Positions 4,535-40,168 of a stretch of 64,000 nt of DNA are shown here, piece by piece. The notes beneath the pieces are model-generated. The model was not told the origin of the DNA, searched no databases, and saw nothing but the letters and a program-made list of their open reading frames with translations. Position 1 is the stretch's first letter. Every line of letters starts with the position of its first letter. The DNA is taken from the NCBI GenBank assembly GCA_040389185.1, contig JAZKAJ010000005.1, positions 19,887-83,886 of the forward strand, in the 5' to 3' direction. Position numbers and translations under genes: made by a program. The stretch is from Patescibacteria group bacterium (GTDB lineage Bacteria; Patescibacteriota; Minisyncoccia; Phycocordibacterales; CAIRYW01).

Positions 4535-4690
4535 TTATTCTTCTGGTTCTCCAGGATTCTCCTCAATCCCCCTCACTTCATCGACAGACATCTCTCGTCC
4601 GCATCTGTTACATTTCAAAAATTCGGGATCATCTAATATCATTATTGATCCACACTCATCACAAATGACATCTTGAAGTATATTGTTCAT
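4535..4690 (-). CDS. Small zinc-ribbon protein (51 aa; CxxC...CxxC), downstream of murF.
   Basis: The translation is MNNILQDVICDECGSIMILDDPEFLKCNRCGREMSVDEVRGIEENPGEPEE. Not in the ORF track because it is shorter than 60 aa. Confidence 0.4.
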   Translation of the reverse strand: MNNILQDVICDECGSIMILDDPEFLKCNRCGREMSVDEVRGIEENPGEPEE

Positions 4691-4707
4691 ATTTTTAACT
4701 CCTACGA

Positions 4708-6018
4708 TTATAAGGACGAAGGGAAATATAAGTTATGACAAAAGCGTCGCACCTGTCTCACAAGTAGTTTCTCCTTTTGTTTTGGATCGAGCATTATTCT
4801 CTCTACCACTTTCTCAAGTCTCATTCCTTGAGATCCTTTTACATACACAATGTCACCTGCAGATATTTTATCTTTCATTGCCTCCCCTGTATCGATTGAA
4901 TTTTCAAATACAAAAATATTTTCTTCTTTGAATTTATTTTCAAGAAGGGCACCTTTCATTTCTTTGGCTCTGATTCCAACAAGTCCCACGATATCAAATA
5001 TCTCCGCTGCGAGAAGTCCTAGCCTATGATGTTCATCCTGAGAAAGCTTGCCGAGCTCAAGCATATCGCCTACAATCGCGATCTTCTTGCTAGTACAATT
5101 CAATCCTTTTATTGCATTAAATCCTTCTTCCATCGCTACGGGAGATGCGTTATAGGTATCATCGATAATGACTGAATCATTAATTCCAGAAATTATATTC
5201 ATTCGCCCTCGAGGAAATTCATATGAATCGAAAGACTCAACAGCTTTGAGAGGGCTGAGACCCAATGCATTTATAACTGCAAATGATGCGAGTACTGGAT
5301 AGACAAACTGATTACCATAAATATCTTCAAGTGAGACCGGGATACTTGATCCCAGAATATCAACTTTGAAGGCAATGCCTTTCACCTTTTCATTTTTGTA
5401 AATCGGTTGAATGAAGCTTGCTTTAACATCTGCCTTATCTTTGATGCTAAATGTGAGCACTTTTGCGCTTGTGAATTCTTTGAATCCCATTACATCGCTA
5501 TCATCTGCATTCAAGATGAGAGTCCCCTCGGGCTTTAGACCTCGAGCGAGATATGACTTTTCTTTGATGACTTCGGCTACTGATCGATAGTATTCAACGT
5601 GTACCGGTACACTTCCAATACGAGTAATAACTGAAATATCGGGATGAATCCATTTCATTACTTCCTCTATCTCTCCTGGATGATCTGCTCCAATCTCAAG
5701 CACAAGCCATTCTGGGTACTTTGATTTTGATACAACAAGCCAAAACGCATCGTACATATTTTTAAACCAAAGCTTATGATCACTCCAGGCATTTGGGAGT
5801 CCAAGAATTGTAAGAGGGATTCCGATATCACTATTGAAACTTTTGGCACTTTTTCGAACAAAGAAAAAAGGAGAGAGTGCGGTATATATTGCATCCTTTG
5901 TCGAAGTTTTACCTACACTTCCTGTCACCGCCACAATCTTTGGCTTGTACTTTTTGAGAACAAGTTTTGCCTCGATGGTAAGAATCTTAATGACGATTTT
6001 CTTTAATATGTTTTTCAT
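4708..6018 (-). CDS. murF: UDP-N-acetylmuramoyl-tripeptide--D-alanyl-D-alanine ligase.
   Basis: 436-aa ORF with the Mur ligase P-loop GSVGKTSTK and Mur ligase middle/C-terminal signatures, in a dcw context. Confidence 0.88.
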   Translation of the reverse strand: MKNILKKIVIKILTIEAKLVLKKYKPKIVAVTGSVGKTSTKDAIYTALSPFFFVRKSAKSFNSDIGIPLTILGLPNAWSDHKLWFKNMYDAFWLVVSKSKYPEWLVLEIGADHPGEIEEVMKWIHPDISVITRIGSVPVHVEYYRSVAEVIKEKSYLARGLKPEGTLILNADDSDVMGFKEFTSAKVLTFSIKDKADVKASFIQPIYKNEKVKGIAFKVDILGSSIPVSLEDIYGNQFVYPVLASFAVINALGLSPLKAVESFDSYEFPRGRMNIISGINDSVIIDDTYNASPVAMEEGFNAIKGLNCTSKKIAIVGDMLELGKLSQDEHHRLGLLAAEIFDIVGLVGIRAKEMKGALLENKFKEENIFVFENSIDTGEAMKDKISAGDIVYVKGSQGMRLEKVVERIMLDPKQKEKLLVRQVRRFCHNLYFPSSL

Positions 6019-32885: not shown

Positions 32886-33314
32886 TTATTTAAGAGTAGA
32901 AAATTGAATTATCCATTCAATACCATACACATCTCTAAACATCCCAGCATATGTACCCCAAGGACTCTCACCTATCGGACCTTCGACTTCCCCTCCGTCT
33001 GATAAACTGTTAAATAATTTATCAGCTTCTTCTTTGCTGTCTGCGTTCACTAAAATTTTACTTCTATTTTCTCTCTCATTTACTTTCCCCATAAATTCTG
33101 GAACATCATTACCTATCAAAAGATTATTCGCACCAATAGGCAAAGCAATATATATAATTTTATTTTCTTCATTTGCTGCAACTTTGAATTCAGCGCTTGC
33201 CAAATCTTTAAAACGTATCACTTTTGTAAATTCTGTCCCGAACACTGATTTATAAAATGTAAATGCATCAAAGGCATTGCCGTTGAAGTTAATCCAAGGA
33301 TTTATTGTTGTCAT
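32886..33314 (-). CDS. VOC-superfamily protein, PhnB/3-demethylubiquinone methyltransferase-like.
   Basis: 142-aa ORF, with N-terminal TINPWINFNGNAFDAFTFYKSVFG and a C-terminal GWTYAGMFRDVYGIEW segment. Confidence 0.7.
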   Translation of the reverse strand: MTTINPWINFNGNAFDAFTFYKSVFGTEFTKVIRFKDLASAEFKVAANEENKIIYIALPIGANNLLIGNDVPEFMGKVNERENRSKILVNADSKEEADKLFNSLSDGGEVEGPIGESPWGTYAGMFRDVYGIEWIIQFSTLK

Positions 33315-33605
33315 TATGTAATTATATATATCATAGTAAATTTCTTCAAATTTTCGACTCTTGCAATAATATTTACTTATTGCAGATTTCGTGTTTTAAT
33401 TATATAAATTGTTAGGAATGGCATGTCGCCATTCCCCATATAAACACACACCATGAAAGGAGGGGCAGATGTCCTCGACAAAAAATTGGGATAATAAGGT
33501 TTTGATTCTGAGCACAGGAGGATATATCCCTCTTGCAATCGGCGGATGGAGTCATCCTGAAGAAGTCAATAGGCTTCATACACTGCATGGCTCATCCTCG
33601 CGGTA

Positions 33606-35085: not shown

Positions 35086-35431
35086 GTTTGTGGTCTCCTT
35101 TTGTTAGAACTGTTCAAAGTGAACTTATCACGTTTTTGTGATATGTCAATAATATTGTTATGGTTTAATGCTCGGAATCACAAATAAATTAGTGCGGGTT
35201 CTAATTCCAACCAAGGTAACAAAAAATCACCTTGATAAACAAAGTGATTTTTAGTTGCTCCCCGGTAGGGAATCTTTCGTTACACGAACAGTACACCTTT
35301 TGGATAATTTGCTTCTTAAAATCGCAAATTATGCTCAAAAGGTTTTCGATCCCTACACGCAAGTGCCCCGCACTTGCTCGGCTGGAGCACAAAAAGAAAA
35401 AACACCTATTATAGGTGTTTTTTCTTTTTGT

Positions 35432-35775
35432 GCTCCCCCGGTAGGGATCGAACCTACGACCAATCGATTACATTTATCCTAAAATTACTTAAAGGGATGG
35501 ACTATATCATATCCGTATTCTAAATTTCTTTAGAGTTTAGGACCGAGGCGCTTCGTTCCAAATATTATTTAGAACTACTCCGTTAAGGATAGTCTCTGAA
35601 CCTTCTCCGATTTACACCAGAGCTTGGCTGCTGATTGCCCTTTGTATTGCTACAAATAAGGTTTCCAGCAATTCACCTCGTTTTTCAAACTATCATTTCG
35701 ATAGAAAGCTGCAAACAGTATCATTTTTAATGATGACGCTGACAGTCGATTGCTCTACCGCTGAGCTACAGGGGA
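35432..35775 (-). tRNA. Intron-containing tRNA. Exons are 35742-35775 (5') and 35432-35469 (3'). The anticodon is most consistent with GUU (Asn).
   Basis: The exons fold as acceptor TCCCCTG/CGGGGGA, D-arm GCTC-AGCGGTA-GAGC, anticodon stem ATCGA/TCGAT, variable loop TGGTC, T-arm GTAGG-TTCGATC-CCTAC and discriminator G. The loop is CUGU|UAA when spliced at the U.G pair. Confidence 0.75.
35470..35741 (-). ncRNA. Group I self-splicing intron (272 nt) in the tRNA anticodon loop.
   Basis: Canonical core elements are present: P AAUUGCUGGAAAC, Q GCAAUCAGCAGCC, R GGUUCAGAGACUAUCC and S GAUAUGAUAUAGUCCAUCC. The 5' exon ends in U, with a GCAG internal guide that can form P1, and the intron ends in G. 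Confidence 0.8.
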
Positions 35776-36144
35776 ATATTACTCTATCTTTTTGATCATT
35801 ATTTTCATACTGATCAAAATAAATCTGGCAAATAAATTGTCGATTAACAGTCTCGTCACAGATAATTTTCCGCTGAAAATTTCTGCGACCCCACCTCACG
35901 CCATCGCGTTCCGGTCTTGCGGTTGGGTCCCTATCCCAACCTCACTCCACCGCTCTTCTACAGGGGAATACTATGTTTTATCAAACATATCTGATTACTA
36001 ATTATAATAACCAGAATTTGTCTTATAACAACAATTTTTGCTCTACCGCTCCGCTACAGGGGAATACTCGGAACATAGTATCAAAAAAGTAGCTTTTTGC
36101 AAAGGATTAGATAGAACCATATTGCCCTAAGAAAGAAGCCGGGG

Positions 36145-39807: not shown

Positions 39808-39880
39808 AGGGCCGCAGAGCGGGGCCCTTTATTCCAACTCGACATTGTTTTCTTATGAGCAAAGCGAATTAGAAAACAAG

Positions 39881-40098
39881 AAGTACTCTTGTGGCGTAAG
39901 AGTACTCGTTCCACGCTTTCCTTACAGGAACTGTGTCGTAGATATTTTTCTTATGAAAAATTCTACCACCCTGACTCGCACCGTCGTGCTCCGTCTCTAA
40001 ATTCTTCCAAGTATTCAGAATTCAGCCTTTTGGATTGAGTACAATCTCAAAAGTCTTCTAAAGCTCCATGCATTCGCTTTTCACCTCGCTCGTTGGAA
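39881..40098. repeat. 218-nt structured repeat element R, the long inverted copy related to the element at 38789-38852.
   Basis: Its reverse complement starts ttccaacgagcgagg and ends ...tggaacgagtactcttacgccacaagagtactt. It contains a 9-bp palindrome agtactctt/aagagtact. Confidence 0.5.
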
Positions 40099-40168
40099 AT
40101 AACATAGTAAAAAAACAAATCACTACCTCTTGAGGTAGTGATTTGTTTTTATTATGTTATAAACTATC

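Follow-up and report, generated by a model that had tools for sequence, protein, structure and literature searches.

Fragments of tRNA-Asn around an intron-containing gene as candidate ends of a modular structured RNA family in Patescibacteria

Introduction

Partial copies of a tRNA gene lying beside an intact one raise the question of whether they are the debris of past recombination or parts of something retained for use. Integrated elements are the usual explanation for fragments of tRNA genes (PMC9897764), and tRNA-Asn is an island target in other bacteria, for example for ICEKp1 (PMC13023037); partial tRNA genes beside intact ones are routinely dismissed as integration scars or annotation noise. 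Here we explore this question in a 64,000-nucleotide stretch of the genome of a Patescibacteria group bacterium (GenBank assembly GCA_040389185.1, contig JAZKAJ010000005.1, positions 19,887 to 83,886; hereafter the window, whose own numbering is used throughout), in which an intron-containing tRNA-Asn gene is surrounded by pieces of its own sequence. The setting is a large, poorly understood bacterial branch with tiny genomes, in which each retained non-coding element is likely to matter. A preliminary description of the locus took the pieces for scars of repeated recombination at this tRNA, either integrase attachment-site (att) remnants or serial partial duplications, with a decayed tandem tRNA array as a fallback. 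The explanation that we favour, and which in our judgement has about an even chance of being correct, is that the fragments are the tRNA-derived ends of a modular structured RNA family, which arose from old partial duplications of tRNA-Asn and has been kept by selection, so that such fragments would here mark conserved folded RNAs.

The split tRNA-Asn gene and the fragments around it

The centre of the locus is a tRNA-Asn(GUU) gene on the minus strand, interrupted by a 271-nt group I intron. On that strand the 5' exon (35742-35775) ends in CUGU, the intron (35471-35741), which is without an open reading frame (ORF), is recognised by Rfam RF00028 (69.5 bits, match 35738-35478), and the 3' exon (35433-35470) runs through the discriminator G, the CCA not being encoded. 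The joined exons constitute a 73-nt tRNA with a U1-A72 pair, which ARAGORN calls as tRNA-Asn(gtt) from the spliced sequence; in the window itself the same program missed the split gene and called only a tRNA-Glu.

The fragments listed in the preliminary description are all present, far beyond chance. Upstream, copy A (36063-36038, minus strand) is identical to tRNA positions 1-26 at 24 of 26 positions, its D-stem being destroyed, as had been claimed, by the change of GCTC to GCGG, while copy B (35967-35945, minus strand) matches the 5' part of the tRNA at 19 of 24 positions. The window has three occurrences of the pattern CCCCTGTAGNNNAGCGGTRGAG, which is shared by the two 5' copies and the gene itself; 100 shuffles give an expectation of 0.00. 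Downstream, an exact 12-mer (35271-35260) lies within the 19-nt copy of the 3' end (35274-35256), and all 12 bases of the inverted T-arm piece (35345-35356) match the reverse complement of 35441-35452. Both reported hairpins are likewise real, one with perfect 26-bp arms (35384-35436, including the last tRNA bases) and the other with 17-bp arms (35218-35256). To this inventory we add a 13-nt copy of the spliced anticodon loop, GACTGTTAATCGA (35852-35840), which spans the exon-exon junction, and a third related element at 39872-40100; outside 35256-36063, no tRNA-Asn-like stretch of more than 10 nt was found in the 64-kb window. Copy A, copy B with the anticodon remnant, the gene and the 3' copy all lie on the minus strand, collinear and in tRNA order, the start-to-start spacings being 96 and 192 nt.

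Ahead of this series is a promoter-like extended -10 element, TGATACTAT, preceded by a T-run (36075-36083, minus strand), from which transcription would start at ~36068, ~5 nt before copy A. This putative promoter was read from the sequence; the simple promoter and terminator scan was uninformative, extended -10 elements and AU-rich hairpins both being unlisted in it. The same T-run and TGnTAnnAT motif stand ahead of the tRNA-Asn unit in many other loci.

A conserved leader upstream of tRNA-Asn

On comparison with related loci (each designated by L and a number), copy B appears to be the 5' hairpin of a structured leader of ~130 nt that is conserved upstream of tRNA-Asn. The motif TCCCCTRTAG(N2-5)GCGGTGGAGT lies at -192 from tRNA-Asn in the window and at -155 to -210 in 10 further loci (L059, L063, L072, L082, L083, L089, L090, L091, L092 and L095), of which L089-L092 and L095 were added by scanning metagenomes for this motif; in at least nine of these other Patescibacteria loci the distance is -185 to -210. 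Compared with the real tRNA, the changes from GGTAGAGC to GGTGGAGT are common to all 11 leaders tabulated (10 distinct sequences), and the leaders with GGTGGAGT come from differently named candidate phyla; the two shared changes thus point to one common ancestor and not to repeated fresh duplications. In L089, L090 and L092 the leader is directly followed by an intact intronless tRNA and is therefore independent of the intron.

Copy B itself (35945-35967, minus strand) is a mimic of the 5' acceptor and D-loop region, UCCCCUGUAG-AAGA-GCGGUGGAG, predicted to fold on itself by pairing of UCCCCUGU with GCGGUGGA (helix H0). This self-pairing remains a prediction, because its columns are invariant and covariation cannot probe it; the shared A-to-G change creates one H0 pair. 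The GC-rich stretch after copy B gives only z = -2.1 when folded alone, and it was the comparison among loci that carried weight. After the mimic comes a hairpin that always pairs although its stem is wholly different among the loci, and then one of two folded domains, followed by a hairpin derived from the anticodon arm. The domain is of type II in the window, L090, L072, L063 and L092, and a type-I core in L082, L083, L089, L091 and L059. In the window the type-II domain (35854-35944, minus strand) is built of three parts, namely hairpin 1, a short stem enclosing a GC hairpin, and a long, AU-rich hairpin that ends in GUGAC. Behind it, the remnant of the anticodon stem-loop, GACUGUUAAUCGA (35840-35852, minus strand), is an exact 13-mer to mature tRNA positions 29-41 in spliced form, and at its place L063 has AUCGACUGUUAAUCAAU. 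Since this remnant crosses the exon junction, the ancestor of the leader would have been an intronless tRNA-Asn; the same 13 nucleotides are also a potential intron-homing site, unoccupied in the window. A spacer (35776-35839, minus strand) containing a hairpin (35790-35819, an inverted repeat) and ending in AAUAU abuts the 5' end of the tRNA, and this layout of a hairpin followed by (A)AUAU precedes tRNA-Asn in most loci.

Copy A can be placed with the help of L090, the closest relative found, which is 70-86% identical over the genes mapping to 41.7-56.2 kb of the window. Between 36105 and 35742 the two loci are 82% identical over 385 nt, a level matching that of the better-conserved coding genes (70-86%). 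L090 has copy A in the same place (36038-36063 in the window), behind the same T-run and TGATACTAT motif, in a diverged, B-like form, TCCCCAGTAGCGGGGCGGTGGGATGAG, and the hairpin-containing spacer between A and B (35968-36037, minus strand) is conserved in it as well. Read side by side, this spacer resembles the segment before the real tRNA in L072, ACAAATTCTG-hairpin-CAGATATGTTTGATAA. The simplest reading of these sequences is that copy A is the stump of a tandemly duplicated leader, the inner part of the first copy having been lost; only here does serial partial duplication fit well. Another kind of leader piece, a T-arm and acceptor-3' fragment, CATAGGTTCGAATCCTATTCGGGGAGCA, is found between promoter and real tRNA in L050 and L068.

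A structured trailer downstream of tRNA-Asn

The tRNA gene runs into a perfect hairpin with 26-nt arms that are 100% complementary (35384-35436, assigned to neither strand), in which an A-run, a stem and a U-run resemble a two-way terminator. In its outer 7 bp the last tRNA bases, GGAGCAC, pair with the first trailer bases, GUGCUCC, and the same design recurs in L069, L095, L060, L056 and L084. Beyond it, the inverted T-arm piece and the 3' copy appear to be the two arms of a conserved structured trailer. The reverse complement of the T-loop and T-stem of the locus's own tRNA is found at +69 to +85 in six further loci (L056, L060, L069, L075, L088 and L095), and in three of these (L060, L075 and L095) a sense 3' copy follows at +149 to +169; in the window the corresponding positions are +77 and +161. 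The antisense piece tracks the T-loop variant of its own tRNA, whether GAUC or GAAUC.

The minimum free energy (MFE) folds of the window, L095 and L069 agree in a cross-terminator hairpin, in which the acceptor 3' strand of the tRNA is paired with the first trailer bases, then hairpin 1, and then a three-way junction with a T-stem-like closing helix. This common layout implies that what had been noted as an inverted T-arm and as a 3' copy are two strands of one helix. Read from the sequence of the window, the first part of the trailer (35360-35383, minus strand) consists of AGCC-GAG and hairpin 1, CAAGUGC-GGG-GCACUUG; the GAG-hairpin unit is found in all trailers and leaders, and in the window hairpin 1 stands alone in the MFE fold. 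The inverted T-arm, GUAGGGAUCGAA (35345-35356, minus strand), being the reverse complement of the T-loop and the 3' strand of the T-stem, would form the 5' strand of the closing helix, and the 3' copy, GAUUCCCUACCGGGGAGCA (35256-35274, minus strand), with the sense 3' strands of T-stem and acceptor, its 3' strand, such that GUAGGGAUC pairs with GAUUCCCUAC. Between them lies a type-I core (35272-35344, minus strand), in which stem 2 (ACCUUUUG/CAAAAGGU) encloses an inner hairpin and is followed by GUAC and by hairpin 3, whose loop is UGUAA. By sequence reading and folding, the acceptor-like pairing of the window trailer amounts to only ~4-7 bp. A second, terminator-like hairpin with A- and U-run flanks (35218-35256, an inverted repeat read from the sequence, assigned to neither strand) ends the unit ahead of the promoter of the next gene.

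A different feature, a recurring GGTTCGA(A/G) motif, is present ~60-70 nt after tRNA-Asn in many loci (e.g. L044, L078 and L082), sometimes twice, and looks like the conserved C-terminus (…VRT*) of small opposite-strand genes and not like a tRNA piece.

The geometry of the trailer brings in the possibility of purely cis-acting control, in which the 5' mimic and the 3' antisense piece would compete with the real acceptor stem and hold the precursor in an inactive fold until its release, the folded domains acting as the sensor. The first trailer bases do complement the last ~20 nt of the tRNA and follow its T-loop variant, the MFE folds (window, L095, L069 and L060) do pair the acceptor 3' strand with the trailer across the terminator, and the downstream sense copy could serve as an anti-antisense. 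Nevertheless, we regard this explanation as improbable, since the third copy described below is a separate unit distant from any tRNA, a strong terminator-like hairpin stands ahead of the trailer, leader and trailer each occur in loci that are without the other, and no ligand or protein partner can be named for the supposed sensor.

Covariation, strand and the unity of leaders and trailers

Whether leaders and trailers belong together was approached with covariance models, applied to 473 kb of Patescibacteria loci together with the window, a sample biased towards tRNA-Asn loci. The type-I model (R1) derives solely from five leaders, all of other genomes (L082, L083, L089, L091 and L059), and it finds the trailer of the window at 35272-35361 with 40.2 bits (E = 6e-8 over 473 kb); the trailers of L075, L084 and L095 score 47.5, 24 and 19 bits respectively. 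The recognition of trailers by a leader-only model argues for leaders and trailers forming one family. In this sample every strong type-I match adjoins tRNA-Asn, and in 301 kb of viral contigs with similar tRNA-Asn genes the same model has no match at E < 1. The type-II model (R2) gives the leader domain of the window 101 bits, that sequence having been in its building set.

Both domains show compensatory changes beyond shuffled and slid controls, as expected for a conserved structured RNA. For type I, in a model-guided alignment of eight sequences from loci other than the window, which replaced a structurally poor plain MAFFT alignment of leaders and trailers (A1), 95.1% of cells are paired, whereas shuffles reach 63.3%; double changes are seen in 20 of the 21 pairs, and pairing falls to 34-53% when the partners are slid. 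For type II, in a plain MAFFT alignment (A6) with the RNAalifold structure, the corresponding values are 95.7% and 84.8%; double changes occur in 12 pairs, compared with 6.7 in shuffles, a number reached by none of 500, and slid controls have 0-2 such pairs. Read in the sense of the tRNA, the helices of the two domains together have 25 G-U pairs as against 4 A-C cells, an asymmetry that points to an RNA made on the tRNA strand.

These data bear directly on the notion that the pieces are neutral wreckage of an ancient, decaying tandem tRNA-Asn array. It would account for the collinearity of the pieces on the tRNA strand with spacings of 96 and 192 nt, and for a leader that still holds, in order, 5' acceptor and D-loop sequence and the anticodon arm. 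However, the pieces themselves are not decayed: the derived GGTGGAGT is common to all 11 leaders from differently named candidate phyla, the intervening sequence forms helices that covary across distant lineages, the identity to L090 (82%) is coding-like, and the structure model transfers from leader to trailer. Of the fallback proposed in the preliminary description, only the collinear tRNA-derived pieces are therefore borne out, and as a whole we find it hardly credible.

A third, stand-alone copy and the insertion alternative

The third copy (39872-40100, minus strand) is a stand-alone paralogue, matched by the type-II model at 39934-40024 with 62.5 bits (E = 7e-11) and having an MFE z of -4.9. 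It starts after a terminator with a promoter-like TTTTTTTACTATGTT, much like the promoter motif of the tRNA locus, and continues with UUCCAACGAG, hairpin 1 and stem 2; the type-II domain comes next, nested at the usual position of GUAC, and gives way to hairpin 3, again with a UGUAA loop, and to a terminator-like hairpin. It has no match in Rfam. The family thus also exists in stand-alone form, and a type-II domain can sit inside a type-I scaffold. The type-II core (CGGAGCGCGACGGCGCGAG and a hairpin) also tips hairpins ~170 nt long with arms of ~45 nt, at 4646-4728 (minus) in L086, 940-1022 (plus) in L078 and 5195-5273 (plus) in L085, those of L086 and L078 lying ~4.2 kb upstream of tRNA-Asn on the same strand; they may be another related RNA.

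Nesting of this kind recalls the behaviour of mobile elements, and the main rival to our explanation is indeed that the folded domains, especially type II, are miniature selfish insertions which target tRNA-Asn genes and each other, with the tRNA-like arms being terminal inverted repeats or duplicated target sequence. The type-II domain does sit at tRNA position 26 in the leaders and, in the third copy, at the GUAC junction of a type-I scaffold. Antisense and sense copies of the tRNA 3' end delimit the trailer, as terminal inverted repeats would. Hairpin 1 has the same sequence in the L059 leader and the L075 trailer, the identity of L063 and L095 breaks off after the last tRNA base, with unrelated sequence beyond, and the three copies of the window fall within 4.8 kb, in a gene-variable stretch missing from L090. 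On the other hand, no transposase, integrase or reverse transcriptase was found nearby among the ORFs scanned, every strong type-I match in the biased sample adjoins tRNA-Asn, the viral contigs searched contain no matches, offsets are conserved across lineages, a clean empty site was not found, and the covarying helices with their G-U asymmetry are as expected for an RNA under selection. On this balance we consider an insertion element unlikely.

Integration and recombination at the locus

The preliminary description had proposed scars of repeated island integration and excision at tRNA-Asn as its main reading. The arguments for it are that tRNA-Asn is a classical island target elsewhere and that tRNA fragments often arise via integration, as cited above, that a direct 3' copy lies 161 nt downstream of the gene, that small accessory genes flank the locus, and that events exactly at the tRNA end are seen in other loci. 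In L084 (~1990-2650, minus) ~700 nt with one gene have been inserted after the tRNA, separating it from a degenerate old 3' end, beyond which the terminator hairpin and the trailer persist. L063 (at 3746) and L095 (at 1729) are 100% identical over 1729 nt, as far as the final base of tRNA-Asn, and unrelated beyond, which reflects either a strain-level flank replacement exactly at the tRNA end or an assembly join. The tRNA end is a hot spot in this sense, and insertions next to the modules are real; from these cases it does not follow that the modules are their scars.

Several observations stand against att remnants, which we consider very improbable. The suggested cognate integrase did not appear: a Pfam comparison of 33 ORFs, a subset of those in the window, contains no integrase, recombinase or transposase, and the 1.5-6 kb downstream of the equivalent elements in L095, L075, L060, L056, L088, L069 and L084 contain none of these by the same means. 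No distal att repeat was detected in the window with an 18-mer allowing up to 3 mismatches or with blastn-short, the only sense 3' copy being that at 161 nt, with the terminator and a folded RNA alone in between. Integrases that target the 3' end of a tRNA gene are not known to leave 5' fragments behind upstream of it, and the upstream fragments, like the antisense piece, the conserved offsets and the covarying helices, stay unexplained. Comparison with related genomes speaks against the scars, on the very ground that the preliminary description had named as refuting, in that the same fragments occupy the same positions without any element: L090 carries A and B, and L095, L075 and L060 carry the trailer pieces at the same offsets. 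In the comparison of occupied and empty sites the L090 contig ends inside the tRNA, L063 and L095 have no matching far flank, and L084 has its small insertion. Of the repeated-recombination proposal as a whole, an origin by partial duplication of tRNA-Asn is supported, whereas the att component is not.

Searching the viral contigs with the 5' pattern brought up complete phage-borne tRNA genes alone, for the most part tRNA-Asn, fragments being absent; matches of the domain patterns there were chance matches only, rejected by the model.

A working model and its weaknesses

Under the explanation that we favour, old duplicates of tRNA-Asn would have acquired folded domains and been retained. The unit would then read, on the minus strand, as promoter, copy A stump, spacer, leader, tRNA-Asn with its intron, hairpin terminator, trailer and second terminator, where the leader comprises the copy B mimic, a type-II domain of ~90 nt and the intronless anticodon-arm remnant, and the trailer comprises hairpin 1 and a three-way junction with the type-I domain, closed by the T-stem-like helix. 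The modules would be RNAs of the tRNA strand, presumably co-transcribed with tRNA-Asn, the third copy being transcribed alone. Their tRNA-like ends would serve as closing helices and probably as cut sites for RNase P and RNase Z, freeing the modules from the precursor. The first ~20 bases of the trailer could pair either with the last ~20 bases of the tRNA or with the trailer's own sense copy, so providing two competing folds. That the modules function as co-transcribed RNAs mimicking tRNA is something we infer only.

A number of points weigh against this explanation. Covariation was measured in small alignments of 8 and 5 sequences, one of which had been fitted to the model, and the predicted self-pairing of copy B involves invariant columns only. 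The 3' copy has an acceptor-like part that lacks one G in the window, is likewise imperfect in L095 and is lost in L084, so that this part may be drifting and not be required. Insertions or flank replacements exactly at the tRNA 3' end (L084; L063 versus L095) mean that recombination, too, has shaped these loci, and the nesting of type II in a type-I scaffold looks like insertion behaviour. Only about a quarter of the sampled intron-type tRNA-Asn loci carry any module. Finally, it is guesswork that transcripts extend past the first terminator and that RNase P or RNase Z processes them.

In a wider sense, and with slightly less than an even chance in our estimation, the locus would exemplify an undescribed modular structured-RNA family on tRNA-Asn scaffolds, be it a tRNA-mimic class or a small insertion element in structured RNA genes. 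From the sequences, it would have two kinds of domain, the second fitting inside a tRNA-like 5' half or inside the first, and would occur before, after and away from tRNA-Asn. As tRNA mimics, the modules could act on the maturation of tRNA-Asn or on a tRNA-binding protein. If functional, they would represent a new family of tRNA-mimic RNAs and a further layer in the making and control of tRNA-Asn. The two models and the motifs TCCCCTRTAG-N3/4-GCGGTGGAGT and AAGGTGTAC-N6-TGTAA allow Patescibacteria genomes and metatranscriptomes to be surveyed for it.

Comparison with known families and systems

Scans against Rfam 15, at the gathering threshold and with E up to 10, of the locus, 15 related loci, the third copy and L086 placed no family on the modules; only the group I intron and tRNAs scored, the other matches being generic long hairpins. 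The modules are undescribed in Rfam 15 and in the open-access literature searched.

Several known systems share part of this design. Like the tRNA fragments that arise as att repeats (PMC9897764; ICEKp1, PMC13023037), the locus has partial copies beside an intact gene, including a direct 3' repeat downstream, and like tRNA-Asn islands it involves a known target, with an insertion at the tRNA end seen in L084. Unlike att repeats, it comes without an integrase found and with merely 161 nt, and no element, between the repeats, and it has upstream 5' fragments, an antisense piece, fixed offsets and helices covarying across lineages. As in the tRNA-like RNAs, such as the tRNA-like domain of transfer-messenger RNA (tmRNA), YrlA, viral tRNA-like structures and mascRNA (PMC8127992, PMC8457004), acceptor and T-arm sequence is combined with a foreign folded domain, and acceptor-like and T-stem-like helices close the trailer domain. 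These RNAs differ from the modules in that the trailer is without an anticodon arm, the leader is without a 3' acceptor strand and there is no Rfam match; ARAGORN finds no tmRNA in the window.

The likeness to miniature inverted-repeat transposable elements (MITEs) and REPIN-like repeats consists in inverted ends around a short non-coding core, nesting and several copies in a variable region. The modules depart from these repeats in that no dispersal was seen in the 473 kb, no target-site duplication was identified, and there is covariation of the RNA type with G-U asymmetry. Functional spacers of tRNA precursors are also known, an example being the E. coli sponge 3'ETS-leuZ (from a 3' external transcribed spacer); such spacers are short and base-pair with small RNAs. 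The modules resemble them as structured RNAs in a tRNA leader or trailer that tRNA-processing enzymes could release, and differ from them in their multi-helix folds of 90-130 nt, their partly tRNA-derived sequence and the existence of a stand-alone copy. T-box leaders, similarly, are structured leader RNAs tied to one tRNA identity; here, in contrast, the leader precedes the tRNA gene itself and not an aminoacyl-tRNA synthetase or amino-acid gene, and a trailer copy follows the terminator. The Rfam T-box family does not match, and no conserved AAC was noticed in the internal loops of stem 2 on reading, which was an informal inspection; the T-box was dropped on the latter ground.

Other candidate identities were rejected on structural grounds. 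A hammerhead-like core in the tip of stem 2 was discarded, as its flanking strands pair together and leave no cleavage strand, and a K-turn in the inner loop of type II was discarded with a loop of 3x2 and not 5x2. Hairpin 3 is not an anticodon loop, since positions 32 and 38 covary as a pair, which leaves a pentaloop. An integron cassette array was dismissed because the gene spacers are too short, and a permuted or split tRNA because the halves do not make a complete tRNA.

Interrupted tRNA-Asn genes and the surroundings of the locus

The intron of the window is one of many at this position. A scan of one genome per species found 49 loci with the 5' half of this tRNA and a non-T after CUGU, which by record titles are nearly all from Patescibacteria or the candidate phyla radiation (Saccharibacteria, Paceibacterota, Nomurabacteria, Kaiserbacteria, Vogelbacteria and others). 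Where the 3' exon could be located the insertion measures 243-601 nt, with clusters at ~243-300 and 510-600 nt, and Rfam calls a group I intron in every interrupted locus scanned; interrupted tRNA-Asn genes would accordingly be common in Patescibacteria. To our knowledge, tRNA-Asn is not among the classical bacterial tRNA intron hosts. The sole long intron checked, that of L050 (3951-4307), contains an HNH endonuclease ORF (Pfam HNH), and in Patescibacteria mobile group I introns with such endonucleases are often housed in tRNA-Asn. Group I introns in tRNAs of the candidate phyla radiation have been mentioned in passing (PMC8172020). A Logan contig, SRR26324622_377943 (L001), is identical to the window and stops inside the tRNA 5' exon at ~35748, consistent with strains in the sample differing there, for example by the presence or absence of the intron.

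The larger of the 33 ORFs scanned in the window are mostly core chromosomal genes, namely mraW, two mreB, mreC, fmt, def, metK and a Mur ligase gene. The small accessory genes lie on both sides of the locus (~29-35 kb and 36-41.7 kb), the upstream block being absent from L090. One glyoxalase-family gene (window 32886-33327) has 73-77% DNA identity to genes located a few kb from tRNA-Asn in L046, L050 and L062. In L082, ~3 kb downstream of the tRNA-Asn locus, there is a LOOT RNA (5774-5897, minus; Rfam RF03000, 84 bits).

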